A DNA stretch of 64,000 bases from Patescibacteria group bacterium (GTDB taxonomy: Bacteria > Patescibacteriota > Patescibacteriia > Magasanikbacterales > UBA922). Where the stretch lies: positions 52,300 to 116,299 of the forward strand of contig JAHJIX010000017.1 of assembly GCA_018823045.1 (NCBI GenBank), given 5' to 3'. Of the stretch, positions 10,331 to 29,002 are shown one piece after another (positions within the stretch are counted from its first letter, which is position 1; the number at the start of each line of letters is the position of its first letter). The notes below the pieces were generated by a model. That model searched no databases. It had not been told where the DNA came from and worked only from the letters and a program-made list of their open reading frames with translations. Made by a program: the position numbers and the translations under genes.

Positions 10331-10441
10331 AATCAGACATTATTTGACAAAATTGCTTTTTTATGGTATATTTTACTTACTTTTTGACGCCTCGATTTAT
10401 CGAGGAGGTTCGTCCCCCGCTTCATGCGAGGGACAGTTTTT

Positions 10442-10852: not shown

Positions 10853-10883
10853 AATATAGTGTTAATCATATAATATGTGCGAA

Positions 10884-10944: not shown

Positions 10945-10948
10945 TCCC

Positions 10949-12451
10949 CTACTCCCATTTATCAGTAAGAAAATCACCTTTTTTCTTTTCTTCTCTCCAA
11001 AAGAGTACCATAATCCCAATCAAAATCCAAATATAAAACATTTGTGTTCTAAATTCAAAATACGGTCCAAAAAAACCAATGACCATATATCCAACTAAGG
11101 TACCCACTAATCCGGTTGCAAAAATATATAATATATTTTTTTCTCGCTGTCTTTGACGCACATAGAGTGCAGCACGAATACTTGCCCCCCAAAGTGCGAT
11201 ATAAGCAAGAAGACCAATAGTCCCAAGCTCTCCCCAGAGGCTCATCCAACTATTATCTATTTGCCCATATTTATTTTCAATACCAAATGGCATTTTTAAG
11301 CGATCATATGTTTCTGTGTTTAATAGCGCTGCTGCGACTCCTCCACCATAATTACCTGGCCCCACTCCAAAAAATGGATGGTACTGCACCACCATACGTG
11401 GCGTATTGATAATAAAGAAAATTCGTCCATATCCTTCATAACTTTCTCGCCATGCCCGCAAACTCACTGCCTCAAGCATACGCTCTGGAATAGATTGGTT
11501 TGGTGTCTCGACTATATGCGAAACATTTTCTTGTACCATGACAAACATACCAATATAGCCAATCATACAGGCCGCAAAAGCTCCAACAGCAATCATGATT
11601 CTTTTATCTTTCATGAGAATAATTCCCATGGTCATCACCGCTGCTACATATCCAATCCAACTTGCTCGTGAATATGTTAGCACTAAGGCAAGAATACCAA
11701 TTGCACTTGCAACCCAATACAAATAATATTGAGTACTCTGTTTTTTAAGTACATATAAAAATGGAAACAGCATGCTCAATCCAATAGCAAGTAAACTTCC
11801 TAAACGATCATAACGCCCCATAGTAGCAAAAACACGACTGCCAGGAGTCCAAAATTGCTCAATGCCACCCAAAACTGCGGTATTCCCAATATTAACCACA
11901 GCTGTAGAAAATAAATAGGCATCAAGTCGTCCACCTGCAGCGTATTGGAGTAAGCCTAATACAGCTTGAAAGAGTATCATGACTCCTCCTAAATATAGCA
12001 ATCGGATAAGAATTGGCTTTTCTAGTCGCAAAAATAATAAAACAAAAAATATTAGACCAAAGCGGAGTATTTGCCGCATACCCAATAACCAAACAAATGG
12101 TTCATATTGATTGAGTATAAGCGAGATACAGGCAAACAAAACAAATAGAACAAACCACTTATTGAGTGGATTTTTAGGAAGAATTTGCCGTGCATTTCGT
12201 ATATAATGCACCCACGCACCAATAGTTAAACTATACAATAATAATTCTGGAATATATTTTATATATGCGTAATAATCGATTGGCGCATATTGCAAAATCA
12301 GACTTTCAAACGGAAACCAAATAATAAGTGCATAAATAATCCAATATGTTCTTTTTATTTGAAACAAAAAGAATAGCCCAAAGAATGCTGTAAATAGTAA
12401 CAGACAAAATAAAATAATATTTGGTGGTAGGTATGCAAGAATGGCTGACAT
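10949..12451 (-). CDS. O-antigen ligase/polymerase family (Wzy_C domain) integral membrane protein
   Basis: 500 aa, ~12 TM helices, with the characteristic LTYSRASWIG motif and a large periplasmic loop. Confidence 0.7.
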   Translation of the reverse strand: MSAILAYLPPNIILFCLLLFTAFFGLFFLFQIKRTYWIIYALIIWFPFESLILQYAPIDYYAYIKYIPELLLYSLTIGAWVHYIRNARQILPKNPLNKWFVLFVLFACISLILNQYEPFVWLLGMRQILRFGLIFFVLLFLRLEKPILIRLLYLGGVMILFQAVLGLLQYAAGGRLDAYLFSTAVVNIGNTAVLGGIEQFWTPGSRVFATMGRYDRLGSLLAIGLSMLFPFLYVLKKQSTQYYLYWVASAIGILALVLTYSRASWIGYVAAVMTMGIILMKDKRIMIAVGAFAACMIGYIGMFVMVQENVSHIVETPNQSIPERMLEAVSLRAWRESYEGYGRIFFIINTPRMVVQYHPFFGVGPGNYGGGVAAALLNTETYDRLKMPFGIENKYGQIDNSWMSLWGELGTIGLLAYIALWGASIRAALYVRQRQREKNILYIFATGLVGTLVGYMVIGFFGPYFEFRTQMFYIWILIGIMVLFWREEKKKGDFLTDKWE

Positions 12452-12499
12452 AGTGACATCATAGATGTCATCTTTAATTCTTATTTACAGACAATACTC

Positions 12500-12623
12500 A
12501 CGTCATTGCGAGGTGGCGTGAGCACACCGCGGCAATCCCGTTGTTAAAGAAAAACAATTGTTTTAAGACATAAACAAAGGGATTGCTGCGCCCCGTTTTA
12601 CAAGACGGAGCTCGCAATGACGT
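12500..12623. repeat. Nested-palindrome intergenic repeat element (copy C)
   Basis: ACGTCATTGCGAGGTGGCGTGAGCACACCGCGGCAATCCC…GGGATTGCTGCGCC…GCTCGCAATGACGT. It has the same outer and inner inverted pairs as copy B, with a longer AT-rich central loop. Confidence 0.85.
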
Positions 12624-12885: not shown

Positions 12886-14805
12886 TTATTGATTGTCGCC
12901 GTTGTGGCTACAACCAACAGCGCCTGAAGGCAGCGGTGCGCAGGAATAATCCCCGTTCACCGTGTGGCATATGCACGTGGAAAAGTCCCAAGTGGACACG
13001 CTACACTCGCCTTGCTCGCTCCAGTGCCGGCCGTCAGAAACGGCCTCGTTACGAGAAGCACCTCGGACGGGCCACCACTCAAGGTAGGCCTGGTTACCGG
13101 GGGCGCTCGCGGACGCCGTGATAGTCACTGCAAATGAATTGCAATTGCCAGCTTGAGCGATCTGGACGCAGAGGTCCAATACACAGCTCTCACCGTCAGC
13201 GCAGTCAGCATCGTCCATGCAGGTATCCGCGGGAGGCGGAACCTCACAGAGATTACTGACGCAAACTTCGCCATCACCCTGGCAGGGGTTCTGCGGGTCG
13301 CAGTAGCCGGGGATGGGTAGATTTGCGCAGACACCGCTGTTGCAGGTGTCGTTGGTGCTCGGATCGGAGTCATCACAGTCCGCGTCGGTGACGCAGACTG
13401 CACAACCCTCGTTGATCTCACCGTCACAGTCGTTGTCGGCCATGTCATCACAGAGCTCAGGAGCTCCTGGGTAGACACTCGAGTTTCCGTCTTGGCAATC
13501 GACGTCGGCAGTAAAGCCGTCGCCGTCCAAGTCTTCCTCGCCGGGAGTGAAATCACACGCGCCGGGGGCGTCTTCAACGCCGTCACCGTCACAATCGCTG
13601 TCACAGGCGTTGCCGAGGCCGTCGAGGTCGAGGTCTTCTTGACCGGGGTTGGACACGTTGGGGCAGTTGTCGAGGACGTCGGGCACGCCGTCGCCGTCGA
13701 GATCGCTCTCACAAGCGTCGCCGATGCCATCGCCGTCCTGGTCGCACTGGACCGGATCCGTTGTCGGATCATCGTCGCAGTCGGAGGGGGCGTTGGCTAC
13801 GTCAGGGCAGTTGTCTTCGTCGTTGAGGACGTCATCACCGTCGAGGTCGCCGTCGCAAACGTCGCCGTCGCCGTCACCGTCCGTGTCGAGCTGGTTACGG
13901 TTGGCGAGGATACGACAGTTGTCGTCATCATCGTTCCCAGCGATGCCATCGTGGCCATCGTCAGGGATGCGGTCGTTGTCGTCGTCATCGTCACAGGCGT
14001 CGCCGAACTCGTCGTCGTCGCTGTTCAACTGGTCGACGTTGTGGATATCGGGGCAGTTGTCCACGTCGTTGTCGTGGTCATCGCCGTCACGATCGGTGTC
14101 ACAGACATCGCCGAACTCGTCGCCGTCCATGTTCTCTTGGTTGGGGTTCGCGGTGTCGGGGCAGTTGTCGATGCCATCGCCGATGCCATCGCCGTCACGA
14201 TCGTCCTCACAGACGTCGCCAGTGCCGTCACCGTCGGTGTCAATCTGGTCGGCGTTGGGGACGAGGCGGCAATTGTCGTCGTCTTCGTTTCCGTCGACGC
14301 CGTCATCACCGAAGTCAAGGACGCCGTCGTTGTCGTCATCGTCGTCGCAAGCGTCGCCGAGATCGTCGTCGTCGGTGTTCGCTTGCATCGGGTTGGGCAC
14401 GTCGGGGCAGTTGTCGTCATCGTTGCCGAGGGCGTCGTTATCGCGATCGCTGTCGCACTCGTCGCCGATGCCATCGCTGTCGATGTCGATCTGCCGAACG
14501 CACATGTTCTCGACGCAGAAGATCGGAGCAGCGAACTTGGCGCCATCGGGCCCCACCATGATGGCGGGGATGTCGATGCAGTCGTTGGCGTCGGCGCAGG
14601 CCACGGGGGCCTCGTCGACGAGCGCGGGCTCAGCGGGGGGGTTGGCGGTGCGGGGGCAGTTGTCAGCCCCGATGGGGATGCCGTCGGGGGTCAAGGCCGC
14701 CTCAGAGGCGGACGTGGAAGAGGGACCCTGGCCGGTCGCGCTACACGCGACGGCGAAGATCGAGAAGAGAAACAGGGCGATCATGCGCTGCATGACTTTC
14801 TCCAT
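12886..14805 (-). CDS. Thrombospondin type-3 (TSP3) repeat calcium-binding lipoprotein, Asp-rich
   Basis: 639 aa. Signal peptide + lipobox (LFSIFAVAC|S). More than 10 tandem repeats fit the TSP3 consensus DNCPxxxNxxQxDxDxDGxGDxCDxDxDNDG (e.g. [63 protein letters not shown]). Cys-rich C-terminal domain. ~65% GC. Confidence 0.8.
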
Positions 14806-14882
14806 TACTGGTATCGTGTATGATCTTTATGCTTAAAAAGATTACTTCATATCACGATACGTTAACAAAACCAGAAACTTTT

Positions 14883-15677
14883 CTAGAACGTCCAGCCGGT
14901 AGACACACCTAAGCGTGTCGCACCGAAACCGGATTCTTGCGTCGGAACCATGGGCGGCTCTGTCCCTGCTGGGAAGAGACCGACCTGGGGGCGTTGCGCC
15001 ACCCACTCAGAATGACCGAAACCGACTTGAAGGCCGATCCGAAAACCAGAGTTAAACAGACGCTCAACCTGCAGCTCGCCCATGTGGGTCTGCAACAGGT
15101 CGCCCTCGATATCAGCAGTTTCATCCCAAATGAGAAGACCTCGATACCCAAGCGCAAAGCGCCAGGCATCGATTCCTCGATACTGGGTCCCGAGAAACAC
15201 CGAAGTGCCTCCGGGTTTGAAACCGTCCATGTAGGCCGGAGCCCACGCGGTCGTTCCACGTCCATACCAGTTCTCGGCTATGCGGAGGTTTAACTCCAAA
15301 CCAAGTTCCAATAAAAACGCGTTGTCACCGTTGTCTGGTGTGATCAAGGCCACGGGGGTTAACCCGAGTCCCCAATCCCACTTTTTCTCCAAAGTCTCAA
15401 CCCTCTTTACAATCTGAGGGTCGGCTTGTGGCGGGGGCGGAGGAACTGGACATGAAACGATTTCAGAGGCCGTCTGCTCGTCAGAGCAGATGCCCGTTAT
15501 GCGAACCTTCTTACCAGGCGCACACTCGTTTAGGTCAAGGACCTTTTCCAATACCTCTCCATCCGGACAGGTAAGCTTAACTTTCCAACTGTTTTGTGCG
15601 TTAACCGGGTTCAGCCCGGCACTGATCACGGCCAGCATGGCCGTGACGAAGAGCGCCTTAATGGTGCTCCTTATCAT
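14883..15677 (-). CDS. Outer-membrane beta-barrel-like protein (signal peptide, C-terminal …TGWTF)
   Basis: 264 aa. N-terminal signal peptide (MIRSTIKALFVTAMLAVISAGLNPVNA). Alternating amphipathic beta-strand pattern in the C-terminal half, ending in an aromatic residue (F) as in OMP barrels. Immediately upstream of the TSP3 gene (operon-like). GC-rich. Confidence 0.5.
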   Translation of the reverse strand: MIRSTIKALFVTAMLAVISAGLNPVNAQNSWKVKLTCPDGEVLEKVLDLNECAPGKKVRITGICSDEQTASEIVSCPVPPPPPQADPQIVKRVETLEKKWDWGLGLTPVALITPDNGDNAFLLELGLELNLRIAENWYGRGTTAWAPAYMDGFKPGGTSVFLGTQYRGIDAWRFALGYRGLLIWDETADIEGDLLQTHMGELQVERLFNSGFRIGLQVGFGHSEWVAQRPQVGLFPAGTEPPMVPTQESGFGATRLGVSTGWTF

Positions 15678-15727
15678 ACCAACCTCCTTGCCAGCCGTTT
15701 AGGTGGCGGGGTTTATGTGTTTGGTAA

Positions 15728-15770
15728 CTACAGGATTAAAGAAAGTATATTACTTTGCTTAATCCTGTAG
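15728..15770. repeat. Perfect 12-bp inverted repeat CTACAGGATTAA…TTAATCCTGTAG with a palindromic 19-bp loop, in an AT-rich spacer inside the GC-rich island
   Basis: Direct reading of both arms. No T-run follows. Confidence 0.6.
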
Positions 15771-16026
15771 TCCAAATACAATTGGTAGATATGATGTATA
15801 TTAGTTTAATACTCATCAATTGTAATGATCGATTTAGGATGTGTTAAATCCTCAATCATCATTTAACTTGTCATAAGCATAAATGATGATAGTTGGATCC
15901 TCTATACAAGAAAGTATAGAGGTTAAGGCTCATCTAATAGTTGATCTACGTTGTGGACGTAATTCAATTATATAACGATGCTATCACGCGCCTTGAGGTG
16001 AGTGTGATAGTATTTGAAGATAGAAA

Positions 16027-17004
16027 TTAGGGAATGTACTCCGTCTCCAAACGGGGACGAGCACGAGCAGTCCTTCGACTGTCTCCTAATGATGTGGGGT
16101 TGGAGGCCGGAGCAGGCTTCTTCGCCTTGGCGACGGCCTTATTCTCCTTCTCCCACTTGTTGATTGAATTTTTTGTTAACCAGACACCGTGATCCTTGCG
16201 GATCTTTTTGCGGCACTCTTTGACGCTCTTGGAGGAATTTCGGCAAAGTTTGTACTCTTCCTCATGTCCCTTGGAGCGGAAAGATCGGATGGCGTAGGCC
16301 TGTTGGTTTACCTTTAAAGACAAATTCTTGAAATCATCGTCGTGATCATCTAACCGATCACTGTTGATCTTGATATCTACCCTGTTATCCTTGATCAACT
16401 TTAAATGTCCATCGAAGACGGTCTTGGCTGTTGCAAAGGCCTTATCGTGATTACCGAGACGGGTATCATGACCAGCGAGCTTCGTGTCGTGGTCGACGAG
16501 GCGAGCCTCGACGGCAGTGATACGATCATCTTGGTTATGATTCCAATCCATGAAACCGTCACGAGAAAACACCCAGACCATCGCCAAGATGAGAACTAAG
16601 ATGAGGGCCAAGACCCCCCAGAGCCAGCCTTTCCCGGTAGGGAGGTTGCTCAGGACGGCTTGGAGTCTATCTTCGCGAACGAGCTTATTGTTTGTGCGCC
16701 CGTTGTTGTTCTCGAACGTGTTCAAACGATCAGTGATGTAGGTGTCACGATCATGGTTGGCGAGCTGCGCGGCGGTCTGAACCGCGAGGTAGATCTTGAG
16801 GGCGGCGGCTTGATCGGTAGGGTCAGTGATATCCCTCTTGATCACAGCTTGCCCCTTTGAGGGATCAGCGATGATTTCGTTGAGAGCGGACTCGCTGAGC
16901 CCTGGAATGAGTTCCTTGAGTTTATCCTTCACGGTTCGTTCTTCCTTTGGCCACTGGGGCCGGCTTTTTGGTAAGCCCCAAGTACAGGGCCAGTGACACC
17001 GCAA
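16027..17004 (-). CDS. Hypothetical membrane protein (single TM, His/Asp-rich repeats HD-T-K-L-A-G-HD), GC ~52%
   Basis: 325-aa ORF. TM segment LWGVLALILVLILAMVWVF. Repeated xHDxxL motifs (VDHDTKLAGHDTRLGNHDKAF). The true start is uncertain. Confidence 0.4.
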   Translation of the reverse strand: MRCHWPCTWGLPKSRPQWPKEERTVKDKLKELIPGLSESALNEIIADPSKGQAVIKRDITDPTDQAAALKIYLAVQTAAQLANHDRDTYITDRLNTFENNNGRTNNKLVREDRLQAVLSNLPTGKGWLWGVLALILVLILAMVWVFSRDGFMDWNHNQDDRITAVEARLVDHDTKLAGHDTRLGNHDKAFATAKTVFDGHLKLIKDNRVDIKINSDRLDDHDDDFKNLSLKVNQQAYAIRSFRSKGHEEEYKLCRNSSKSVKECRKKIRKDHGVWLTKNSINKWEKENKAVAKAKKPAPASNPTSLGDSRRTARARPRLETEYIP

Positions 17005-17227: not shown

Positions 17228-20200
17228 TTAACTAAAAGTATATACTGGTTTACCATTTTCAAATTTAATTCCTAGAACTTCACTTTGAGCAGCTCCATCT
17301 ACTTTATATAATTTTTCACCATCTGTTTCAAATGTATATCTGTTATCATCAATAAAGACATGTTTTCCTTCTGGTGTTAAATATTTAATTCCATGCCCAT
17401 CAGCAGATACGGCATATGGATTACTCTGATCTACAGGATCAAGTAAATTACCATATCTTGGATGCTCTAAATCACTGATATTATCTTTTAAATTAAAAGC
17501 ATCTCCTGAAGGATTGTTAAGAACTTCTTGTAATTTATCTACAATATGTTTAGCATCCTCACCAATAACATCTAATTTACTCAACATATCATTAGCTTCT
17601 TCAACAGTAGGTTCCATGTCAAAACCATCTATATCATCGCTTTGTTCAATATCTGAAGTAAGATCTTCTTGATATATATTAGCAGCATCTGCTTCAACAG
17701 CGTCAGAACTACCTGATATCTCTTGCAACTTTTGATCTATCTGACTAGAATCTATACTACCCTCATTTAATTTATTGTGAATATCTAGATGTTTATTAAT
17801 ATTTTCTTCCTCAACCAAGATACTCCTCCCCTTATATTCAGCATATATAGCATTACTCTCTGACTCAACTGTATATGCTATATCATGTCCCAATACTTTA
17901 TTGTTTCCTTGAGCATTTGCTATTAACCCCTTTAAGTTCATCAACTTGTCATGAGAATTAGATAAGCCATTAATTGTATCTAATCGTCCTTCTTCTATAG
18001 ATACATCTGCTACCACATCACTACTAACTTCTTGCTCACTAAACAAAGACTTATTGCTCACCTTTGGATGAAAAGCCTTTTTATTGGTATCGATAACCTC
18101 TCTACCACTACGTTCTACCGTTTTTACAGGAGCACCCTCTCCTGCTATAGCACCAGATCCACCTTTCGCATGTACACCAAGCGCATCTTCTCCTGTTTTT
18201 ATAGCTTCAGGCGTCATTGTTTTTTGCTTGATAATATCATCTACAAAATTACGTCTGTCTGTAGGTAAAGGATCTGTTACAAATCTCCCTTCTTCTACTC
18301 TTGGTGGGTTTGATCCTTTAAGTGCATCTAAACTTGTCTTAATAACCGTACCGCTTCCTGTCTTAATATGAACATCTCCAGTTTTTTTATCTGCCCAAAA
18401 TTCATAGCCAAAATCGTCAGATCCACTAGAAGCTGCTAATCCAGTTCTCTTACCTAATCCTTCAGGAAGTTTATCTAGCACCTCTCCACTACTTGCTACA
18501 CGTCGAAGTTCTGCAGCGGCTTGTTCATTATATTCTGTGGTATTCCACTTATCTACCTCTTGATAATTATCATCTGTAACATTAGCTTGTTGATTTGTTT
18601 CAACAACGGTTGTTTCTCCACCACCACGATGATATTCTTTTACGTTGTCAAATAGGTTAATTTGATTGTCTTCTGCAACAATATGGAAATGTGGGTTTCC
18701 TTTTGCGTCAAAAGCAAGCTGAATTTTAGCTCCTGGACGAAGGGTAAAGCCTCTCGCTTCAACTCCCCCACCAATCTTAATTTGCCACTCTTTTAATTGT
18801 GCTCTATACATTCCTTGAATATCTTTATCTGAATGACCATATCCTTCAAGAAGACGTTTCATCGCACGGATTTCTGCTCCACGGACATTATCTGCCCCCA
18901 CATCTATCTCAGCAGCAAGACGTTGCCCATCTGCATTCACTAAATTTTTATCATCAAAATAATTAACATTTGAGACCTTAGCCCCAATTTTTGGTAACTC
19001 TATAGCTGGTTTTAGCTCTGGCGTTGGTTCTGCTTGTTCTGGAGCATTTTTATTTTCTGTACTTCCTTCCTCTTGACTTTGAGTATTAGCAGAGTCTTGA
19101 TGTGTCTCTGCACTGCTTTGAGTTCCCCAATTCTTAGCAACCAATTCACCATCTTCATTATATACTCCTGTTTTTACAGATGCACCAGCTGTTTCACCAG
19201 CAGCAACCATTCTTACAGTATCCTTTGCCTCTTGAACTCCCCAACCAACTAATAAAGCAGCACCTGTACCTAATGTAGCACCAGCTAGTACCCCTATTGC
19301 TCTATATTTGAGCTTACTTTTTCTTTTTCGTGCATCAGCAGTTTCTAATACTTGCCCTGCATTTTTCATTGCACGCACACCGGCTTCTAAATTCATTTTT
19401 TGTTCAGGACTTTCAAGCAAAACGCCTTCTTTCTCTACCTCATATACTAACTGACGAATTTCCGTTAACAATAGTTTATCTCGCATGATCACTTGCTTTC
19501 CATCTTCATCTGCTTCCCAATACATTACTGCTGTCATTTCTTCTGGAGAAGCTGTTCCATGCAATAATCGTTTTAAGTATAATGTTTGCTGTTTTAATTC
19601 CTTCATCTCAGGATTCTCCTTACTAGGATCCAAAAATGCACGAAGATTATCTAAAACACTACTTACATGCGCTTTTTCTTCTTTTCTCTCTCCACTCAAA
19701 CGCATTCCTTCTGCCATACGATAGCCTGTGAGTGTTCCTGCAGCAGCTCCCATAGCCCCTCTATAGATCATACTATCAAACATAATAAACCCTGTTGCGG
19801 CAGCTCCTAATAGGATACTTACTCCTAAACTTTTCTTACCACCAAATGCTTGTAATACGTATTCTAATTTACTAATGACAATAGGATCAACAGTTCCATC
19901 TTCAATTTGTTTTTCTAAATCACCACTGAGACGATCCCCTTGATCGCGCATAACAAAAATAGCTTTTGCAAGTTGCAATTTTTTTGTTTCATTTCCAGCA
20001 TCTGCTCGTTCAATTAATTGATCAAGCATTTGTTGATATACTTTTCTTTCATCTGCAGTTAATTTTGCTAATTCTGTATCTAATTCTTTATTTCCTTCCT
20101 CTGTTCCTTGCACTTGTTCTGTAAGAGCGCGGAGTGTTTGTGACATAATTGCACCAGCCTGTTCTAAATGCTGTGTCATATCTAAAACACCATTATTAAA

Positions 20201-22567
20201 ATCTAAGAGCTCACTTACAATTTCTTGTTTTATTCGTTCTTCTTGTTCTGTCTTAACCGCATCTTGTCCTTTTTTAAACTTACCATTTAACCATGCATTG
20301 TTTGCAATTAAATGACGAAAAGCACCACCAACACCACCACCAGCAACAATCGTTCCTGTAGCGGCTAAACCAGTCAATGCAAAACCTCCTGCAATCAAAC
20401 CAGCTCCTGTTGCTGCACCACCAACTAATCCAATCGTTAACCCCGTTTTTATTGCTAATTGCTTCCACAGTTTCTCTTGCTTCTTTACAAATTCACCTAA
20501 ACCATGCATTCTTTCTGCTACTTTTGCACGCACGGTCTCTTCTGCAGAAATAGCATATGTTTTGGCAACAACTTCAGCAAAACGTCCTTTCCATAGTTCA
20601 ACAAATTCTGGAGACTCTCCCTCTTTTAAAATATCTTGAAATTTACTTAAAATTTCTTGTGACAAAGAACCATTAAATCCATGCTCAACAATATGAGTAT
20701 ATAATTCTTTTAATGCTGCTTGTAATTTCTTCGAATCAATTTTCTCTTTTGCTTCTTTAAGAGACAAATCAAATTCTTTTCCTTGATATTCTCTCCCAGA
20801 AACCCGTTCTTGTAATTCAGCTGTTTCTTGTCTCTTTTTTGCTTTTTCTGCTTCAACTGTAGCTTGGTTGCTAGCTTCTGTGTGTAATGCTCCAAAATGT
20901 TGTTCTTTTAATTTTTTTAATGCTGCTTTTCTATCAGTTACAGCATTTTTACGTTGTTGTGTTATTTGATCTTCCACGGACAGTGAGACATGATTATAAA
21001 CAATACTACTACTACTAGCCAAAACACCCACCAAACTTCCCCCCAATGCTTTCATGTTCTTTGCTAGAGTAATAAATGTATCAATACTATCCTTTAAATT
21101 ATTATCAGTCACCTGAGCCTTTAATGCTTCTGCTTCTATCACTAACGCATCCATTTCTGCCTCAAAATCAAACATTCCCTCTTCGATAGTGTCGGGTCTT
21201 TGTACATTTTCCCAATCATTTAGGAGCTCTTTTAAAATATCAGCAGAACGTGAATCTTTAATACCTAATACATAATCAGTTTCAGCAACAATTCCTACAG
21301 CAACACCACTTGCAGCAAGTTCGGATTCAGGAATTGGATTATGATTACTATCTACAAAATCATCACCAATCTTTTTATATAAAGTGTCACCTTTTTTTTC
21401 TACATTATCTCCAATAAGCTCTTGCTCAGCCTGTTTTTTTCTTTTTTTATCAACTTCATTCCATATATATTGATATAAAGGGTGAGAATTACTCTCTAAA
21501 GAATGAAAAATATCAATATAGACATCTTCTTCTACATGAGCTAACTGATCATTATAATCGGCAATTACTGCTGGAGATAACTTTACTTCATTTGCGTTAA
21601 AATCATTAATTGTAGGAATAATCAACTGTCTTGGAGGAGCACCTCTTCTTCCTCCACCTTGATATTTTACAGGTAAATGATGTTGTTTTAATAATGCTTC
21701 TCTTTGACGATCATTTGCATTTCTAAATTCATCACCACTTAACGTATTCCCTGCTTCATCTCTTGCAGCATTAACCAAATCACTTAAGATAGTCTTCCTA
21801 TCCTCTTCAATATTATTTTTTATCAACTTAATTTCTTTTTCAATTTGTTCTAAAATTCTTTTTGCTAAATCTTTCTTTTCTTTCACCTCTGCTGCAGCAG
21901 GAACCGCTTCAGTCCAATTAGGATCTTTTTCTAATTGAGAAGCCCCTTTTACTTCTTTTACAGCCCTTTCTAGTTCTGCAATCACATCTTGCGCTTGTGT
22001 GTGCAACGCTTCTAATTTTTTTACTCTTTCTTTTATTGCACGCTTTCCTAAATGCGCAATATTTTCCATAGATAAAATTGCCTCTGCTTCAGCAACTGTT
22101 TTTTGTACTTCAGTAATACCTGTTTGTAAAGTAATACCTTCAGCAGATAAAACACCTGTAACTTCTCCTTTTAAACTATCTAATAAATCGCGTGTTTTTT
22201 GTAAATTTTTTAATGCATCGATTATCTCTTGTCCAACTGTATATGTTTCACCACTATGGTTCAATGTATACTCTACAGCACCATTTTTTTCAGATACATT
22301 TGTATCACCTATATTATATCCAGCAGGCAATCCATCTCCTGCCTTATCAACAATATCTGGTGCATAATCAAGCTGAATTGCATCACCATCTCCTTCTAAC
22401 ACAAGAATAAATTTTCCATCTTTACTAATTCGTGCTGGTTTTGCAAGTTTCCTTTCTTGCCATGTATTTCCAATATTAACAACAACCGTTGTATCTTTTA
22501 TATATTGGCTTAGCTCCATTGGCTGTTCCTGTCCTTCTCTATTTTTAAATTTTATTTCTTGTGACAT
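17228..22567 (-). CDS. Giant (1779 aa) hypothetical protein: long coiled-coil regions interrupted by three Gly-zipper hydrophobic hairpins. No signal peptide.
   Basis: ORF track. Gly-zipper segments GLTIGLVGGAATGAGLIAGGFALTGLAATGTIVAGGGVGGAF, GVSILLGAAATGFIMFDSMIYRGAMGAAAGTLTGY, AIGVLAGATLGTGAALLVGWGV. Extensive K/E-rich heptad-like stretches. Beta-rich C-terminus. Confidence 0.6.
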   Translation of the reverse strand: MSQEIKFKNREGQEQPMELSQYIKDTTVVVNIGNTWQERKLAKPARISKDGKFILVLEGDGDAIQLDYAPDIVDKAGDGLPAGYNIGDTNVSEKNGAVEYTLNHSGETYTVGQEIIDALKNLQKTRDLLDSLKGEVTGVLSAEGITLQTGITEVQKTVAEAEAILSMENIAHLGKRAIKERVKKLEALHTQAQDVIAELERAVKEVKGASQLEKDPNWTEAVPAAAEVKEKKDLAKRILEQIEKEIKLIKNNIEEDRKTILSDLVNAARDEAGNTLSGDEFRNANDRQREALLKQHHLPVKYQGGGRRGAPPRQLIIPTINDFNANEVKLSPAVIADYNDQLAHVEEDVYIDIFHSLESNSHPLYQYIWNEVDKKRKKQAEQELIGDNVEKKGDTLYKKIGDDFVDSNHNPIPESELAASGVAVGIVAETDYVLGIKDSRSADILKELLNDWENVQRPDTIEEGMFDFEAEMDALVIEAEALKAQVTDNNLKDSIDTFITLAKNMKALGGSLVGVLASSSSIVYNHVSLSVEDQITQQRKNAVTDRKAALKKLKEQHFGALHTEASNQATVEAEKAKKRQETAELQERVSGREYQGKEFDLSLKEAKEKIDSKKLQAALKELYTHIVEHGFNGSLSQEILSKFQDILKEGESPEFVELWKGRFAEVVAKTYAISAEETVRAKVAERMHGLGEFVKKQEKLWKQLAIKTGLTIGLVGGAATGAGLIAGGFALTGLAATGTIVAGGGVGGAFRHLIANNAWLNGKFKKGQDAVKTEQEERIKQEIVSELLDFNNGVLDMTQHLEQAGAIMSQTLRALTEQVQGTEEGNKELDTELAKLTADERKVYQQMLDQLIERADAGNETKKLQLAKAIFVMRDQGDRLSGDLEKQIEDGTVDPIVISKLEYVLQAFGGKKSLGVSILLGAAATGFIMFDSMIYRGAMGAAAGTLTGYRMAEGMRLSGERKEEKAHVSSVLDNLRAFLDPSKENPEMKELKQQTLYLKRLLHGTASPEEMTAVMYWEADEDGKQVIMRDKLLLTEIRQLVYEVEKEGVLLESPEQKMNLEAGVRAMKNAGQVLETADARKRKSKLKYRAIGVLAGATLGTGAALLVGWGVQEAKDTVRMVAAGETAGASVKTGVYNEDGELVAKNWGTQSSAETHQDSANTQSQEEGSTENKNAPEQAEPTPELKPAIELPKIGAKVSNVNYFDDKNLVNADGQRLAAEIDVGADNVRGAEIRAMKRLLEGYGHSDKDIQGMYRAQLKEWQIKIGGGVEARGFTLRPGAKIQLAFDAKGNPHFHIVAEDNQINLFDNVKEYHRGGGETTVVETNQQANVTDDNYQEVDKWNTTEYNEQAAAELRRVASSGEVLDKLPEGLGKRTGLAASSGSDDFGYEFWADKKTGDVHIKTGSGTVIKTSLDALKGSNPPRVEEGRFVTDPLPTDRRNFVDDIIKQKTMTPEAIKTGEDALGVHAKGGSGAIAGEGAPVKTVERSGREVIDTNKKAFHPKVSNKSLFSEQEVSSDVVADVSIEEGRLDTINGLSNSHDKLMNLKGLIANAQGNNKVLGHDIAYTVESESNAIYAEYKGRSILVEEENINKHLDIHNKLNEGSIDSSQIDQKLQEISGSSDAVEADAANIYQEDLTSDIEQSDDIDGFDMEPTVEEANDMLSKLDVIGEDAKHIVDKLQEVLNNPSGDAFNLKDNISDLEHPRYGNLLDPVDQSNPYAVSADGHGIKYLTPEGKHVFIDDNRYTFETDGEKLYKVDGAAQSEVLGIKFENGKPVYTFS

Positions 22568-22606
22568 ATAACGATGAGTTTATACAAATGATCAGATGAT
22601 AAAATA

Positions 22607-22813
22607 TTAATGATTGGTATCGATATCTTTTAAAACTTCAGCAAGCTTTAGTTTATCAATATCTTTATGAAGTGCTTGCAGGGTTTCCTGTTCTTTTTTT
22701 TCAATATCTTTCCAGGTAGCCAAAAAATGATCATATGCGCGTTGAAGCTTATTAATCTTTATTTGCGTATCATCAATTTCTTGTTGAATATGTTGTGAAT
22801 CTAAGACAGGCAT
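22607..22813 (-). CDS. Small (68 aa) coiled-coil hypothetical protein, co-operonic with the giant protein
   Basis: ORF track. 7-nt gap to the upstream gene, 40-nt gap to the giant gene. Confidence 0.45.
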   Translation of the reverse strand: MPVLDSQHIQQEIDDTQIKINKLQRAYDHFLATWKDIEKKEQETLQALHKDIDKLKLAEVLKDIDTNH

Positions 22814-22819
22814 AGATAT

Positions 22820-23146
22820 TTATGACATGACAGATGCAAATTCTTGTGCAAAATCATCTAATGTTTGTTTGACAATAGCATCAAACTCAGGCACATTGGT
22901 TTGCCAAAACTGTTGTAATTTTTCTGGTGAAATATTTTCATCTTCAAGTAAGCCTTGAAGTTGCTTTGCAGCAGGTTCATCAATTTTATCAATCAGTGCT
23001 AGACCAATACGACGTTGCGCTTCTGCTACAAACTGTGGAATATATTGTGCGCGAGATTCTTCTGAAAGTGTATCAAAACCATGCTGATCTAAAAGTTGTT
23101 CGATGTATTGATTTAAAAAATCAAACTGCTCATTTTGTTGTGACAT
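22820..23146 (-). CDS. Small (108 aa) acidic helical hypothetical protein, first gene of three-gene module
   Basis: ORF track. Acidic, helical (MSQQNEQFDFLNQYIEQLLDQ…). Confidence 0.45.
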   Translation of the reverse strand: MSQQNEQFDFLNQYIEQLLDQHGFDTLSEESRAQYIPQFVAEAQRRIGLALIDKIDEPAAKQLQGLLEDENISPEKLQQFWQTNVPEFDAIVKQTLDDFAQEFASVMS

Positions 23147-23288
23147 ATGTCTTTGAAGTTAGATAATAATTATATATACGATTATTTTATTGTAAACGGC
23201 TTACTATAGCATAAAAAAGCCCTTTTGTCAATTATAGCATGTTTTGGGTGATATGAACAAGCAAAAAAAGTCTGATTGTGCTTGAGGA

Positions 23289-23385
23289 TGGGATTGCTTC
23301 GTCATTCCGCTTCGCTCCATTCCTCGCAATGACGTGCTTTTATTACGTCATTGCGAGCCCTGTGAAACAAGGGCGCGGCAATCCC
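23289..23385. repeat. Nested-palindrome repeat, circularly permuted copy D (GGGATTGCTTCG…CCTCGCAATGACGT | ACGTCATTGCGAG…GCGGCAATCCC)
   Basis: The same four arm sequences as copies B/C, with outer and inner pairs swapped. It abuts the GIY-YIG gene. Confidence 0.8.
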
Positions 23386-23685
23386 TTACTTCATATCCTC
23401 AATCCATTGTTTATATAAATCCTCCCATTTAGGATTGTTTTTATTAATCAATAACTCTTTTTTTACACGCGAACCTGATTTTAACTGTTTTTCACGACTG
23501 ATTGCATCTTTTATACTGTCATATGTTTCTACATGTACCAACATATGTACATTATATTTTTTTGTAAAATGAGAACCGATTCCTTGTTTATGTTCAATAA
23601 TTCTTTTCTGTATATTTTGTGTTACTCCTACATATAATACGGTCTTTCTAAAATTTGTTAAAATATAGGTATAGTATGTATCCAT
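23386..23685 (-). CDS. GIY-YIG nuclease family protein (small YhbQ/UPF0213-like)
   Basis: 99 aa. YTYILTN…VLYVGVTQNIQKRIIEHKQG matches the GIY-x10-YIG motif with the downstream R and E. Confidence 0.7.
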   Translation of the reverse strand: MDTYYTYILTNFRKTVLYVGVTQNIQKRIIEHKQGIGSHFTKKYNVHMLVHVETYDSIKDAISREKQLKSGSRVKKELLINKNNPKWEDLYKQWIEDMK

Positions 23686-23710
23686 ATTTAATGTTTAGTG
23701 AGTTGTTGTA

Positions 23711-23757
23711 TGGGATTGCTTCGTCATTCCGCTTCGCTCCATTCCTCGCAATGACGT
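23711..23757. repeat. Half-element copy E of the repeat family (identical to first half of copy D)
   Basis: TGGGATTGCTTCGTCATTCCGCTTCGCTCCATTCCTCGCAATGACGT. It supplies the last 11 codons and the stop of the KilA-N ORF. Confidence 0.8.
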
Positions 23758-24104
23758 GGTAAAAAAAAGGGGTCGAATTCAAAAGCAATGTCTTTGTGTG
23801 CAAAAGTGCCACCATATCGACCCGCTTTTGATACGATACCTATGGCATTAACACCTTCAATCCATCGTTTTGATGTCATGACAAAATGATTTAACCCAGC
23901 CTCCATTCTAAACCCAGGGTTATTAATTTGCTCCCATAACCCCAAAAACTGCAAAGTATTTTTATTCCTTAACCAATTTTTAATGACATCATCCATTCTT
24001 TTTGCATCTTTAAATCGTGCAATATCAGTTAACGAAATAAAGTCATGCTCATTTTTAACAAAAAAATTGACATGAATATCTTTTACAATAAGATCTTGTT
24101 TCAT
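23724..24104 (-). CDS. KilA-N domain protein
   Basis: 126 aa. FISLTDIARFKDAKRMDDVIKNWLRNKNTLQFLGLWEQINNPGF resembles the KilA-N/APSES-type DNA-binding domain. The C-terminal PRHCEEWSEAE* is encoded by the repeat element. Confidence 0.5.
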   Translation of the reverse strand: MKQDLIVKDIHVNFFVKNEHDFISLTDIARFKDAKRMDDVIKNWLRNKNTLQFLGLWEQINNPGFRMEAGLNHFVMTSKRWIEGVNAIGIVSKAGRYGGTFAHKDIAFEFDPFFLPRHCEEWSEAE

Positions 24105-24184: not shown

Positions 24185-24802
24185 CTACCCAAAATGCCTT
24201 TTTTGCTTTTGCAAAACAAGTACTGCCCCAAATAGCAAACCAGCAAACAATCCAAATAGACCATTTACAACAATATTTGGACGCACTGGCCATTTTGTTA
24301 CTACTGGGCGATTAACAATTTTCATGGTGACGTCTCCCCCAACATACTCCCAACCTTTTGAGACAAGCGCATCAACGGTAGCACCCGCAAAAGCGATTGC
24401 TTGATTTTTATCTGTATTATACGCACTTACCCGCAAGACTCCTGTACCAAATACAACTGAAGATTGTACCATCTTCCCCCATGCTTTTCTTTTTTCTCTT
24501 GCACTGAGTGCATCTAATTCTAATGTATCTAAACTATACCCTGGCTGATCAATGACTTTTGCATAAAAATCATCTGTCGCAGTAATTTGTGCAAGATTTT
24601 CTCCCACACGTTCCGCTGATTTAATAACGGTATACGGGTCGACCCCATAGCGTGTTTTTGAAATAATAAGTACATCAGCATCTGCACGATATTCAAGTGG
24701 CAACACAATAGTCACCAATAAAGAAATAACCATAAACAACGCCCCCATAAGAAAAAGGAAGTTTTTTCGTTTGAGTAAGAGACGCATAGGATGATGATGC
24801 AT
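24185..24802 (-). CDS. Wzz/CpsC-like polysaccharide chain-length-determinant-type membrane protein (N- and C-terminal TM helices)
   Basis: 205 aa, two terminal TM segments flanking a soluble domain (LRVSAYNTDKNQAIAFAGATVDALV). Confidence 0.4.
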   Translation of the reverse strand: MHHHPMRLLLKRKNFLFLMGALFMVISLLVTIVLPLEYRADADVLIISKTRYGVDPYTVIKSAERVGENLAQITATDDFYAKVIDQPGYSLDTLELDALSAREKRKAWGKMVQSSVVFGTGVLRVSAYNTDKNQAIAFAGATVDALVSKGWEYVGGDVTMKIVNRPVVTKWPVRPNIVVNGLFGLFAGLLFGAVLVLQKQKRHFG

Positions 24803-24900
24803 ATACTTGTAATAAAAAATAAATGATAGATTTATAATAATATTATAGCATTTTTTTTGTTTTGATGCGAGAGGACATAGAAAAACATAATTTATCTCTC

Positions 24901-24983
24901 ACGTCATTGCGAGTGTAGCGAAGCAATCCCGCACTTTAATACCCTAAACATTGAGATTGCCGCGCTGTGCTAACGCCAGCTCG
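24901..24983. repeat. Nested-palindrome repeat copy F (variant with inner arms swapped: CGAAGCAATCCC … GATTGCCGCG)
   Basis: ACGTCATTGCGAGTGTAGCGAAGCAATCCC…GATTGCCGCGCTGTGCTAACGCCAGCTCGCAATGAC. Confidence 0.85.
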
Positions 24984-25059
24984 CAATGACATATATTTTT
25001 TTTGACAAAATAAATAATTCATGTTAATCTAAAGTTAATCTATATATAAACTTCAGAAT

Positions 25060-25528: not shown

Positions 25529-25547
25529 TATATAAGTATAAAGAACC

Positions 25548-25639
25548 ACGTCATTACGAGTGTAGCGAAGCAATCCCATTGTTTGGTGCATTAAACGATA
25601 AGATTGCCGCGCTGTGCTAACGCCAGCTCGCAATGACGT
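25548..25639. repeat. Nested-palindrome repeat copy G (same variant and orientation as copy F)
   Basis: ACGTCATTACGAGTGTAGCGAAGCAATCCC…GATTGCCGCGCTGTGCTAACGCCAGCTCGCAATGACGT. It shares ~85% identity with copy F over the shared arms and forms a direct repeat with it around the TA pair. Confidence 0.85.
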
Positions 25640-25694
25640 ATATAATAAAAAAAAGAAGAAAAGCATCTTCTTTTTTTTATCTTGAATCTAGCGA

Positions 25695-26789
25695 TTAAAT
25701 TGCAACCTTTTCCACCTCAATATCAAGCACCTCAGATCCGCGTAACACTTGAAATGTAATCGTACTTGTTCCGCTCGTTAAGATATCTTTTGCAATTGTT
25801 TGTGCGTGAAACGGACGACCTTGTACAGTCAAAATAACATCACCAATACGCAGTGTACTTTTTGCTAACTGATACGGCACAAAAGAAATATAAAATCCTT
25901 CTATTGCTGTTTGACTACCCTCTTCTGTTTGCATATATGAGACCACTTGCCCTTTTAGTGGAATTCCACTATAAGCAATCACTCCTTGATCAAATAAAGA
26001 AGCTAACTGTGTTGCCATATACCAAGAAGGAAGCAAAGTACCATCTTCGCGCATAAATCCAACAAATGCTCCACGGTCGGTAACCAGCGGCTGGTTAATC
26101 AATGCATCAATCTCTTTACCTGCATCAAGCTCTAATGCTTGTGTTTCTTGAGATAATACAATAGTATGTTGGTCAACCATTGGCACTGAAGAACCAATCG
26201 TTATCGGTGTTTCTGTATCAACGACACTCCACAAGATATTTCCAGGAGTAATTTCTTCCCAATCTGGAAAATGAACATCACCACGAAATCCTTCACCACG
26301 TAATTGTATATATAACACATCACTCATTGGATCTTGAATAACCGTTTCTACAGAAGCAATGTGTCCTTGATGATCAACCACTTCCATATATTGCTCCATA
26401 CCACGAGTGTATTGTGGAATCATCACTGTTGCCCATCCTTCATTACTCAAGACAATCGCATGCCCAAGCAAGGCATTTTTTGTATAATAGCCTCCAGATA
26501 ATTTTTCTCGTGTATCAAAAATTTGCACCATTCTTTGCGCTACTTGTTGCTGTACAAAAGAATCCAACTGTGGTGTTTCTTCTGTAACATGTGTATAATT
26601 TGAAGAAATAAATGGTTGATACATCATTGAAGGGTTTGGAACAACCCAGGCAATCGCAACCATTGTTGCCGCAAAACCACTCACAATAGCTAAAATAACA
26701 ACCATAAATACCCATGGAAGTGATTCATAGGTACGACGTAAACGAATATGACAAGCTTTTGGTGGTAAATGTGGCGGAAAATACTTCAT
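25695..26789 (-). CDS. Membrane-anchored PDZ-domain protein
   Basis: 364 aa. N-terminal TM (VFMVVILAIVSGFAATMVAIAWVV). C-terminal PDZ-like block (LRIGDVILTVQGRPFHAQTIAKDIL…ITFQVLRGSEVLDIEV). Confidence 0.45.
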   Translation of the reverse strand: MKYFPPHLPPKACHIRLRRTYESLPWVFMVVILAIVSGFAATMVAIAWVVPNPSMMYQPFISSNYTHVTEETPQLDSFVQQQVAQRMVQIFDTREKLSGGYYTKNALLGHAIVLSNEGWATVMIPQYTRGMEQYMEVVDHQGHIASVETVIQDPMSDVLYIQLRGEGFRGDVHFPDWEEITPGNILWSVVDTETPITIGSSVPMVDQHTIVLSQETQALELDAGKEIDALINQPLVTDRGAFVGFMREDGTLLPSWYMATQLASLFDQGVIAYSGIPLKGQVVSYMQTEEGSQTAIEGFYISFVPYQLAKSTLRIGDVILTVQGRPFHAQTIAKDILTSGTSTITFQVLRGSEVLDIEVEKVAI

Positions 26790-26816: not shown

Positions 26817-27605
26817 TTACACCCAACGGACGAAGAGCCATAACAATAGCACAAACAAGACCACATTTGCAATAAGGAAGGCCTTTTGTTTTTCCCAAAG
26901 TACTCCACGACTGGTAAAATGAAAACGCGCAAGCAGCTGAAATACATACCATACCCATGTCACAAAAAATCCTAAAATTGGGTATCCAAAGGGTAATAAA
27001 TGCACGACCCAGATTAATTCCATGGTCACAACGCCCATAATAAGCATCCAAAAAAGAAAAGCTTTTACTTGGACACGAAAATACAAACGCCACATAAATA
27101 AAGACAGTACAGCAAACCACAGCCCACCTAACACGGTAAAAAGTAGTGGCAAACGTGGTGATGAAGTAAATGAAGAGAGCGCAAAAAAGAATGTTATGAG
27201 CGCATAGGCATCAAAAGCAAGCACCATAGAGGCAAAACGCCGAAAAGGCTTTTCACTCTTCCACCCCGCATCAATGCGCACTATCCCCCATCCATAGAGC
27301 GCTCCTACAATGGCAGCAATGACAACTATTAATACAAAACGAATTTGCGCACGCTCAACAACAGATAATAAACTAAATAAAGAAAAAACAGTCACCAATA
27401 TATATGCAAGCAATGGATACTTCCATCCAAAACGAATATCAATATACCAATATGCTAAAATAAGCAACACAAGCCAAGATACCATGACTGGAAAAAAGAC
27501 AGCTAATGATGGAAATTGATGCACAGTAAATAACGCGGCAGCACTCAACGCCCCTATAATGGCTCCAATATGTGTAGGTGATTGCATAAACAGTCTTTGT
27601 AACAT
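26817..27605 (-). CDS. Polytopic integral membrane protein, hypothetical
   Basis: 262 aa, ~8 hydrophobic helices. Confidence 0.4.
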   Translation of the reverse strand: MLQRLFMQSPTHIGAIIGALSAAALFTVHQFPSLAVFFPVMVSWLVLLILAYWYIDIRFGWKYPLLAYILVTVFSLFSLLSVVERAQIRFVLIVVIAAIVGALYGWGIVRIDAGWKSEKPFRRFASMVLAFDAYALITFFFALSSFTSSPRLPLLFTVLGGLWFAVLSLFMWRLYFRVQVKAFLFWMLIMGVVTMELIWVVHLLPFGYPILGFFVTWVWYVFQLLARFHFTSRGVLWEKQKAFLIANVVLFVLLLWLFVRWV

Positions 27606-28760: not shown

Positions 28761-28785
28761 CGAAAAATGGCGCTAGCTATTTTTC

Positions 28786-28974
28786 GTGTCACGTGAGCAC
28801 GAAGTGCTTTTACGTGACCAGTATAAACATACCCGTCCTAGCACGGCGCCATCTCGTGGCGAGCCAATCAAAATGATACAGCAATATTAAGTGTCACGTG
28901 AGCACGAAGTGCTTTTACGTGACCAGTATAAACATACCCGTCCTAGCACGGCGCCATCTCGTGGCGAGCCAATC
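28786..28974. repeat. Tandem direct repeat, 2 × 84 bp separated by 21 bp, each starting with a GTCACGTGAGCACGAAGTGCTTTTACGTGAC hairpin
   Basis: Copies at 28786-28869 and 28891-28974 are identical by eye. They lie immediately 3' of ssrA and 5' of a GIY-YIG gene. Confidence 0.85.
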
Positions 28975-29002
28975 CAACACAAAACAATAAGGAGGAACAC
29001 AT

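Follow-up and report, generated by a model that had tools for sequence, protein, structure and literature searches.

We examined a 64,000-nucleotide (64-kb) stretch of patescibacterial DNA (contig JAHJIX010000017.1, hereafter the window), and within it a triad of consecutive minus-strand genes, encoding proteins of 108, 68 and 1779 amino acids (aa), the last of which we refer to as the giant. The window comes from the chromosome of a bacterium with a low GC content, and also carries ftsA, ftsZ, pyruvate kinase, PPDK, infC, smpB, tmRNA and tRNA genes. All three open reading frames (ORFs) had been named in an earlier reading of the letters by a model, made without database searches (the original prediction), and were recovered where it had placed them, as was its strong terminator behind the triad. 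We identified the triad as the distal half of a conserved six-gene block which, like the giant family and the 68-aa family within it, is uncatalogued and undescribed in the literature and databases searched, as far as could be found. The triad and its signals, with the genes numbered by their order in the block, are as follows.

23203 to 23231, minus strand: sigma-70-type promoter-like site (TTGACA, 17 nucleotides (nt), TG-TATAGT), upstream of the 108-aa gene
22820 to 23146, minus strand: DUF5663 gene (gene 4), 108 aa, acidic, all-helical, predicted cytoplasmic
22607 to 22813, minus strand: 68-aa gene (gene 5), helical, coiled-coil-like, matching no catalogued family
17228 to 22567, minus strand: giant gene (gene 6), 1779 aa
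17180 to 17211, minus strand: intrinsic terminator-like hairpin, with a 13-bp stem, a 6-nt loop and a T7 run

The promoter-like site agrees with the consensus at 11 of 12 positions and has an extended -10 element, and on this consensus match alone is a putative promoter. The terminator-like hairpin starts 17 nt past the stop codon of the giant, and the two small ORFs of the window lie in the same frame, with a TAA and two further codons between them. The three products are entered at NCBI as hypothetical proteins (KKG22_02080-02090) of a "Patescibacteria group bacterium". They are not chance ORFs, since each related locus that we recovered has these three genes again, closely spaced.

For wider sampling, public metagenome contigs were searched with a degenerate DNA pattern for the family motif GIK[ND]WxxF[KQ]xxW. 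This returned 26 metagenome loci, of which 21 were true family loci and 5 were chance matches, as told apart by hidden Markov models (HMMs) of the proteins of the window and of two loci, L001 and L008. In total, 23 related loci were recovered, and every gene within reach of the contig was present, in the same order and on the same strand: a polytopic membrane protein, an HtrA-like PDZ protein, a Wzz-like protein, the DUF5663 protein, an ORF of 61-72 aa, and the giant. The triad, for which a synteny search had been proposed in the original prediction, is conserved in all 23 of these loci. In the window, the upstream half of the block and the sequences that separate it from the triad are the following.

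26817 to 27605, minus strand: TM262 (gene 1), 262-aa polytopic membrane protein of no catalogued family
25695 to 26789, minus strand: PDZ364 (gene 2), 364-aa membrane-anchored HtrA/DegP-like protein with a C-terminal PDZ domain
24185 to 24802, minus strand: Wzz205 (gene 3), 205-aa Wzz/polysaccharide-co-polymerase-like protein with two transmembrane (TM) helices
24134 to 24161, minus strand: terminator-like hairpin after the Wzz-like gene, with a 12-bp stem and a T-rich tail, at the break between the block halves
23288 to 24104, minus strand: block-splitting insertion with a KilA-N ORF and a GIY-YIG ORF, outside the conserved module

A comparison is offered by L001, a Magasanikbacteria contig, in which a DUF5663 gene 51% identical to that of the window is followed by a 69-aa ORF and then by an ORF of 1896 aa. 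The upstream genes correspond likewise, with 40% identity for TM262 (262 and 258 aa), 37% for PDZ364 (364 and 387 aa) and 62% for Wzz205 (205 and 200 aa), the most conserved gene of the block. Upstream of the block, and divergent from it, smpB followed by infC, rpmI and rplT recurs in most loci. The loci have nothing in common downstream of the giant, and the next gene shows no correspondence between the window and L001. The gaps within the triad are 2-15 nt in most loci, or are replaced by 4-nt overlaps, and the other block junctions are also short in most loci, with about 15-100 nt between the Wzz-like gene and DUF5663. Because this order, the short junctions and the smpB/infC neighbourhood recur between loci, the six genes ancestrally formed one compact block, fixed at a housekeeping locus. 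The fixed gene order, the divergent smpB/infC/rpmI/rplT genes and the absence of anything conserved downstream point to vertical inheritance and a chromosomal function.

We additionally identified selfish insertions, which in the loci recovered fall between block genes and never inside the triad. The insertion that splits the block of the window contains a KilA-N ORF (126 aa, 23724-24104, Pfam E 3.8e-12) and a GIY-YIG ORF (99 aa, 23386-23685, Pfam E 9.7e-15), the latter bracketed by perfect 49-nt direct repeats (family D5, 23288-23336 and 23710-23758), of which the second overlaps the 3' end of the KilA-N ORF. The KilA-N ORF also matches the PADLOC candidate PDC-S22 (E 3.3e-46), over the N-terminal half of the model only. 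This sequence looks like a small selfish or defence insertion into a conserved block. A different selfish insert, a 125-aa ORF of the 23S_rRNA_IVP family, lies at the junction of the HtrA-like and Wzz-like genes in L001 (6323-6700) and also in L002-L005, and gaps of about 700 nt separate the Wzz-like gene from DUF5663 in L028 and L034. The original prediction had described the triad as a self-contained operon flanked by mobile-type DNA. Mobile-type DNA is indeed present, in the form of the KilA-N/GIY-YIG insertion; the operon is not self-contained, being the distal half of the six-gene block. Nor does the picture of a mobile cassette hold, as the triad is ancestral, vertically inherited and fixed beside smpB/infC, and the local split is derived.

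Short intergenic repeats resembling miniature inverted-repeat transposable elements (MITEs), with ends of the CGTCATTGCGAG ... GCAATCCC type, are found at 24900-24996, 25547-25643, 9207-9257 and 12495-12545, and related sequence is also present in 23288-23390. The "repeat copy D" that had been placed beside the triad probably belongs to this MITE-like family; a palindrome pattern search for it found nothing.

We investigated the distribution of the giant by an exhaustive HMMER search, with aa 1-1200 as the query against 1.84 billion cluster representatives (E < 1e-3). Only 32 related proteins were found, almost all of 1400-2100 aa, and those with a named source are all hypothetical proteins of Patescibacteria or of Candidatus Magasanikbacteria, a candidate phylum by rank in the NCBI taxonomy. 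The regions common to the family are the N-terminal part (aa ~10-215) and, above all, a core (aa ~650-1130) that holds three hydrophobic segments and their helical linkers. The giants of the window and L001 share 24% identity, over the N-domain and aa 431-1125, including all three hydrophobic segments. The window giant has no significant match in Pfam, NCBIfam, PHROGs, PADLOC or PDB sequences, and the 26 aligned family members, scanned singly against Pfam and PHROGs, have no family in common; two unannotated PHROGs were matched, each by a single member and with E > 0.003. Membership of a well-known family, such as would have left the small genes unrelated to the large one, was thus not found in Pfam, NCBIfam, PHROG or PDB. 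Likewise, searches of the literature on giant proteins of Magasanikbacteria, and on coiled-coil or glycine zipper proteins of Patescibacteria, found nothing relevant.

A profile of the core had no significant match in the PDB, and touched only B14.7 (E 0.0064) and SlyB (E 7.9). These proteins, of the Tim17/22/23 and the SlyB / Rick_17kDa_Anti type respectively, resemble the giant in their repeated [GAS]xxx[GAS]xxx[GAS] motifs within hydrophobic segments of hairpin length. The matches are compositional, cover 35-44 residues and are not significant, and the size and context of these proteins differ from those of the giant.

The giant of the window can be divided into six regions.

22232 to 22567, minus strand: N-domain (aa 1-112), all-beta, tandem small SH3/Tudor-like barrels, predicted cytoplasmic
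20459 to 22231, minus strand: stalk (aa 113-703), long, helical, heptad-rich, predicted cytoplasmic
20318 to 20458, minus strand: hairpin 1 (aa 704-750), a Gly/Ala-zipper hydrophobic helical hairpin (predicted in-out-in), Kyte-Doolittle peak 1.72
19718 to 19852, minus strand: hairpin 2 (aa 906-950), Gly/Ala-rich, with a short polar break, Kyte-Doolittle peak 1.76
19229 to 19306, minus strand: last helix (aa 1088-1113), a putative single-span TM helix, Kyte-Doolittle peak 1.77
17228 to 19228, minus strand: C-terminal region (aa 1114-1779 and stop codon), fast-evolving, predicted extracellular

An AlphaFold2 model of the N-terminus (aa 1-150, 22 sequences) has a mean predicted local distance difference test (pLDDT) score of 91.1, and contains nine beta strands followed by a long helix from aa 113. 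Fold searches with this domain gave weak similarity only, in all cases to small barrels of the tandem Tudor, SH3, Sm or KOW type, the 53BP1 tandem Tudor being found by Foldseek with E 0.02 and probability 0.85-0.89; the viral structures of BFVD gave no match. Because the fold matches are weak and all of the small-barrel class, we regard the N-domain as a generic interaction module of no specific family. The giant was labelled a coiled-coil protein from its letters, and this agrees with its 227 heptad-like amphipathic windows, against 68 +/- 19 in shuffled sequences. Heptad-like segments of the stalk lie at aa 105-212, 224-269, 462-515, 583-649 and 669-709. The hydropathy profile has no N-terminal hydrophobic segment, and since the N-terminus is hydrophilic we conclude, as had been proposed, that the giant is without a signal peptide.

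Segment statistics were taken over 26 family sequences. The median lengths of the hydrophobic segments are 45 aa for hairpin 1, 48 aa for hairpin 2 and 29 aa for the last helix, and each hairpin has a median of 5-6 [GAS]xxx[GAS]xxx[GAS] motifs (6 in hairpin 1). Of the three glycine-zipper hairpins first described, the first two are therefore of hairpin length, and the third, at about 26-29 aa, is a single-span segment. G748 of hairpin 1 and G910 of hairpin 2 are invariant, and R936, G940 and G948 of hairpin 2 are nearly so. The hydrophobic segments are 30-34% identical across the family, and the helical linkers between them 22-27%. In the C-terminal region, identity averages 13-18% and 52-82% of the columns are alignable; the C-terminus is the least conserved part (13-15%, with only half alignable). 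About two thirds of the family carry a mini-domain after the last helix (W-x-x-Q...G...H-x-G-A...D-x-x-G-x-P-H), and neither this nor the C-terminal region as a whole has a match in Pfam, PHROG or the PDB.

Hairpin 1 is flanked by positive charge on both sides (K+R 3.2 vs D+E 0.7-0.8), and the last helix is strongly positive on its left (K+R 5.2, D+E 1.0) and close to balanced on its right (K+R 1.8, D+E 2.1). The flanks of hairpin 2 are ambiguous, and some relatives have acidic insertions between its halves. Read by the positive-inside rule, these charges suggest an N-in/C-out protein, with two in-out-in hairpins and a final helix that passes from inside to outside, and suggest that the C-terminal ~650 residues (550-780 across the family) lie outside the cell. 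An AlphaFold2 model of the core (aa 590-1135) reached a pLDDT of 55.7, with values below 50 in the hydrophobic parts, 70-85 in the soluble helical linkers, and 72-85 in the helices of aa 600-690.

We next consider the two small proteins. The 108-aa protein belongs to the Pfam family DUF5663 (PF18908; E 6.1e-9, 36.8 bits against a cut-off of 23.7), the match spanning model positions 1-84 of 84, as do 18 of 18 syntenic orthologs (best E 2.5e-11). Its composition (20 D+E, 7 K+R) bears out the earlier description as acidic, and no TM helix or signal peptide is seen in its sequence. DUF5663 is a Pfam family without an assigned function; a PDB profile search gave nothing significant, and no mention of it was found in the literature searched. 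The 68-aa protein is 47% identical to its 69-aa counterpart in L001, and every locus has an ORF of 61-72 aa in this slot, falling into two sequence subgroups. One subgroup escaped the small-ORF HMM and has an ORF of 61-69 aa in the slot, related through an FL...IEKE...KI pattern. Searches of Pfam, NCBIfam and PADLOC with the 68-aa protein found nothing significant, and a PDB profile search gave weak coiled-coil matches, none of them significant. We found no earlier description, in the literature searched, of an obligate pairing of DUF5663 with the 68-aa protein and the giant, and the block gives DUF5663 a first genomic context.

The triad also appears to evolve as a unit. In the 12 loci with all genes, distances between pairs of loci were computed protein by protein, with the giant divided into three regions. 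Phylogeny was approximated by the mean distance of the Wzz-like and HtrA-like neighbours and regressed out, and the residuals were correlated, with permutation p values. The 68-aa protein covaries with the N-domain of the giant (partial r 0.72, p 2e-4) and less with its core (0.26, p 0.043), and DUF5663 covaries with the N-domain (0.60, p 2e-4) and the stalk (0.57, p 2e-4). TM262, taken as a control, gave partial r values of 0.03 with DUF5663 (p 0.42), -0.10 with the 68-aa protein (p 0.70) and 0.11 to 0.25 with the giant regions (p 0.04 to 0.23). We read this covariation as support for a co-evolving functional unit, most likely by way of the giant's cytoplasmic N-terminal part, and not as proof of contact, because the partial Mantel test is liberal and a clade-wide acceleration mimics the signal. 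The three genes thus behave as the unit first proposed, being always together, 2-15 nt apart or overlapping, with rates that co-vary.

The upstream genes of the block encode envelope-type proteins, PDZ364 and Wzz205 with predicted extracytoplasmic domains. TM262 is found at the same position in 15 loci besides the window, and has no match in Pfam or PDB sequences. Its invariant residues include R123, W217, W219, Y220, R227 and F228, and H229 is nearly invariant; we considered it as an exosortase or a CPBP-like protein, and dropped both, as it has no invariant Cys and no Pfam match. PDZ364 is syntenic in all loci that reach far enough, and a profile of 14 orthologs matches DegP, DegQ and DegS chains in the PDB over profile positions 105-353 (best E 3.6e-16), which gives it a trypsin-fold protease domain and, after this, a PDZ domain. 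In the 14-sequence alignment, neither His nor Ser is invariant where the catalytic residues would lie; the sole invariant His lies in a cytoplasmic PHLP motif, with a nearly invariant Pro before it and a TM helix after it, and the region equivalent to GNSGG reads QGxFVGF, with no invariant Ser. As the His-Asp-Ser triad is not conserved on this reading of the alignment, PDZ364 is apparently an HtrA-like pseudoprotease and not catalytic. For Wzz205, 15 of 15 orthologs match the Pfam family Wzz (PF02706, best E 1.1e-8), and the window protein itself scores 19 bits, below the cut-off of 25.5. Hydrophobic helices are visible at both of its ends, and a PDB profile search found no relative by sequence. 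PADLOC gives no match for any of the six block proteins, and we rejected a defence system.

Patescibacteria, ultra-small bacteria also known as the Candidate Phyla Radiation (CPR), hold a large share of bacterial diversity and are mostly uncultivated. The building of their envelopes and their contacts with hosts are largely obscure, and conserved hypothetical families are common in their genomes. For the triad we tentatively favour, with a probability of about 40%, a lineage-specific, resident, envelope-spanning scaffold complex of Magasanikbacteria. Family membership and its restriction, synteny, domain layout, the fold class of the N-domain and the lack of phage or plasmid links are observed, whereas topology, contacts between the proteins, oligomerisation and the cellular role are inferred. 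The giant would be an integral protein of the cytoplasmic membrane, anchored by five helices. Its first ~700 residues would be cytoplasmic, forming a helical coiled-coil stalk tipped by the tandem Tudor/SH3-like interaction domain, and its last ~650 residues would be displayed outside the cell, where they evolve fast. The glycine-zipper hairpins and the single-span helix would anchor the protein, and probably drive tight packing or oligomerisation. DUF5663 and the 68-aa protein would be translationally coupled to the giant, and may bind its N-domain and stalk as stoichiometric cytoplasmic subunits or as assembly chaperones. The complex could work with TM262, the dead HtrA-PDZ protein and the Wzz-like protein, the last two being candidate extracytoplasmic partners of the giant's C-terminus, and might organise or tether a surface item such as the wall, a surface layer or a host-contact site. 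We favour a resident membrane protein because the membrane segments are the most conserved part of the giant, and their flanks are positive on the inside.

Several points weigh against a scaffold complex of this kind. None of the triad proteins is linked to a function by experiment or by homology. The topology is drawn only from hydropathy and the positive-inside rule, with hairpin 2 ambiguous in its flanks, and the membrane core is poorly modelled by AlphaFold, above all in its hydrophobic parts. The giant of the window is also without LRxxGIKNW, the best-conserved cytoplasmic motif of the family, which stands before hairpin 1 and has a nearly invariant L and G in the other members; the gap falls at ~20600-20680 (aa ~630-655), and only the F..LW that follows is kept. 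This absence is not an assembly error, since the identical protein is found in three NCBI records. The covariation could come from an acceleration of the triad across whole clades, without contact, and the partial Mantel test is liberal on data structured by a tree. Co-expression with the upstream genes is not obligatory, since a terminator and an insertion separate them from the triad here. Finally, gene order conserved within one candidate phylum of small genomes could partly be inertia.

A narrower version of the scaffold complex, with one specific role, would be a division or polarity landmark, in which the stalk and the Tudor-like tip recruit division or nucleoid components, the outside part reads the wall, and the small proteins act as regulators. 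We regard this role as rather unlikely. The heptad-rich cytoplasmic region, membrane anchors and extracellular tail would suit it, and the giant family is lineage-specific and fast-evolving, as is usual for landmark proteins; CPR genomes are without many canonical divisome parts, and ftsA and ftsZ lie in the same window, though 24 kb off. Set against this, there is no homology to known scaffolds, the Tudor/SH3-like barrels are generic interaction modules, and no linkage to division genes is conserved, the conserved neighbours being envelope-type proteins and smpB/infC. The landmark and scaffold proteins TipN, EzrA, MapZ and HubP, as generally described, are likewise large, fast-evolving and lineage-specific, with membrane anchors, long cytoplasmic coiled coils and an interaction domain. 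The giant is unlike them in having no homology to them, a five-helix anchor in mid-protein with large domains on both sides, two obligatory small partners, and linkage to HtrA-like and Wzz-like genes.

The giant might alternatively be a secreted or translocated pore-former, kept soluble and targeted for export by the two small proteins, with hairpins that enter the membrane of a host or competitor. Two small helical proteins do lie directly upstream of a large protein that has a conserved N-terminus, a variable C-terminus and glycine-zipper hairpins, and is without a signal peptide; rate covariation links the small proteins to its N-terminal part, and CPR bacteria are thought to be epibionts that need to reach into host cells. 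This arrangement resembles that of the type VIIb secretion system (T7SSb) LXG polymorphic toxins with Lap1 and Lap2 (for example the glycine-zipper pore-former TelE), which are described as sharing the two small helical proteins upstream, the glycine zippers, the variable C-terminus, and small proteins that co-evolve with the N-terminal part. Translocators of the type III secretion system (T3SS) with their class II chaperones would be another parallel. In contrast, we could not find WXG100, LXG, Lap-type (DUF3130/DUF3958) or T3SS chaperone/translocator Pfam domains in the window triad, the 26 giants or the 18 DUF5663 orthologs, nor an EssC/FtsK-type secretion ATPase or core T7SS genes, either in the conserved flanks or in those ORFs of the window that were scanned, nor an immunity-like gene conserved downstream of the giant. 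The giant further differs from LXG proteins in that its hydrophobic core, not its N-terminus, is most conserved, and in that its N-terminus is all-beta and not helical. It is a single-copy gene at a fixed locus, and its membrane segments are the most conserved, with positive-inside flanks. The idea of a secretion substrate with chaperones, raised in the original prediction, thus finds no support in domains or neighbours, and we consider a pore-former unlikely.

It is also conceivable that there is no joint function, and that the three or six genes are mere neighbours through low rearrangement, with the giant acting alone. All loci come from one candidate phylum, and the adjacent smpB-infC-rpmI-rplT order is conserved too, without a functional tie to the block. 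Yet downstream of the giant gene order has been wholly lost over the same evolutionary distance, selfish insertions fall elsewhere in the block and never inside the triad, whose genes are 2-15 nt apart or overlap by 4 nt, and rates co-vary within the triad alone, the control neighbour TM262 showing no such signal. We accordingly hold an absence of joint function to be improbable.

At the more ambitious end, the block might encode a trans-envelope apparatus of epibiotic CPR bacteria, a joint reading that we offer as a long shot. Oligomers of the giant would form a membrane conduit or anchoring ring through their glycine-zipper hairpins, with the hypervariable outer C-terminus binding host or wall; the long cytoplasmic stalk and its Tudor-like tip, carrying DUF5663 and the 68-aa protein, would relay this contact to the inside of the cell; and a Wzz-like oligomer and the dead HtrA-PDZ protein would make up an extracytoplasmic collar. 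If true, this would be a new machine for cell-cell contact or uptake, with no homolog in cultivated bacteria.

Finally, the original prediction had likened the triad to a phage tape-measure protein with its tail-assembly chaperones (gpG/gpGT), and this analogy failed in every test run. The likeness lies in two small genes before a very long, mostly helical, Gly-rich protein with hydrophobic segments and no signal peptide, and in the selfish KilA-N and GIY-YIG genes nearby. None of the 26 giant family members match a tape-measure family in PHROG or Pfam. A search of 2.9 M IMG/VR viral contigs for the family motif gave 0 hits, where metagenomes had given 21 true ones, and tblastn with giant aa 1-1135 and DUF5663 against 50,697 phage records found nothing. 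Nor were phage structural or tail genes found in any locus, and the triad shows neither phage nor plasmid links; the neighbourhood annotation agrees with the earlier statement that no phage or secretion genes are adjacent. A programmed -1 frameshift, which had been proposed for checking at 22813-22820, is rejected, as the geometry of the small ORFs is not conserved: their relative frames are 0, 1 or 2 depending on the locus, and they are separated by a stop codon and 2-15 nt, with no overlap. The varied frames and lack of overlap exclude a frameshift of the gpG/gpGT type, and readthrough between the small ORFs was rejected on sequence and on the varied frames. With no similarity in sequence, an empty BFVD fold search, no viral occurrence and a fixed housekeeping neighbourhood, a degenerate prophage tail module is extremely improbable.

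The membership features tested were absent, DUF5663 excepted, and the giant cannot be assigned to any known kind of system. The novelty lies in a family outside every such kind, and the claim does not extend to a new mechanism. For experiments, the block is a concrete unit whose domains are delimited and whose N-domain is confidently modelled, and for which a topology is proposed and the N-domain and stalk are predicted as the interaction surface.

We noted several further features of the window. Directly downstream of the giant lies a GC island (~12886-17004), with about 61% GC at 13-15 kb over a background of ~36%. It contains an ORF for a 639-aa thrombospondin-type-3-repeat protein with internal repeats of ~108 nt and an MtsC-like NCBIfam match (E 4e-55, below the cut-off), and two further ORFs, of 264 and 325 aa, that match no family significantly. 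As it is not syntenic in the related loci, the island was probably acquired horizontally. A second giant surface-type protein is encoded at 53399-63961 on the minus strand, by a 3520-aa ORF with TIG, CBM_4_9, Big_5 and dockerin domains, and two TSP3_bac-repeat proteins lie just downstream of it (50389-52776).

A tRNA-Asp gene (31223-31297) abuts a large serine recombinase gene (31258-32847), and is followed at 33032-36016 by a Dcm-type cytosine methylase, an EcoRII-C-type endonuclease and a tyrosine integrase. GC falls to 28-31% over 31223-36016, which is probably an integrated element with a restriction-modification system. Two 98-nt direct repeats, 95% identical, are found right after the tmRNA gene (28775-28977), and three 84-nt repeats with an internal palindrome (30672-30937) overlap a 128-aa ORF without a family match. 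Within a glycosyltransferase gene cluster (2072-12451), a PemK/MazF-type toxin ORF (136 aa, 10442-10852) has radical-SAM and Wzy_C/O-antigen-ligase-like genes on either side.

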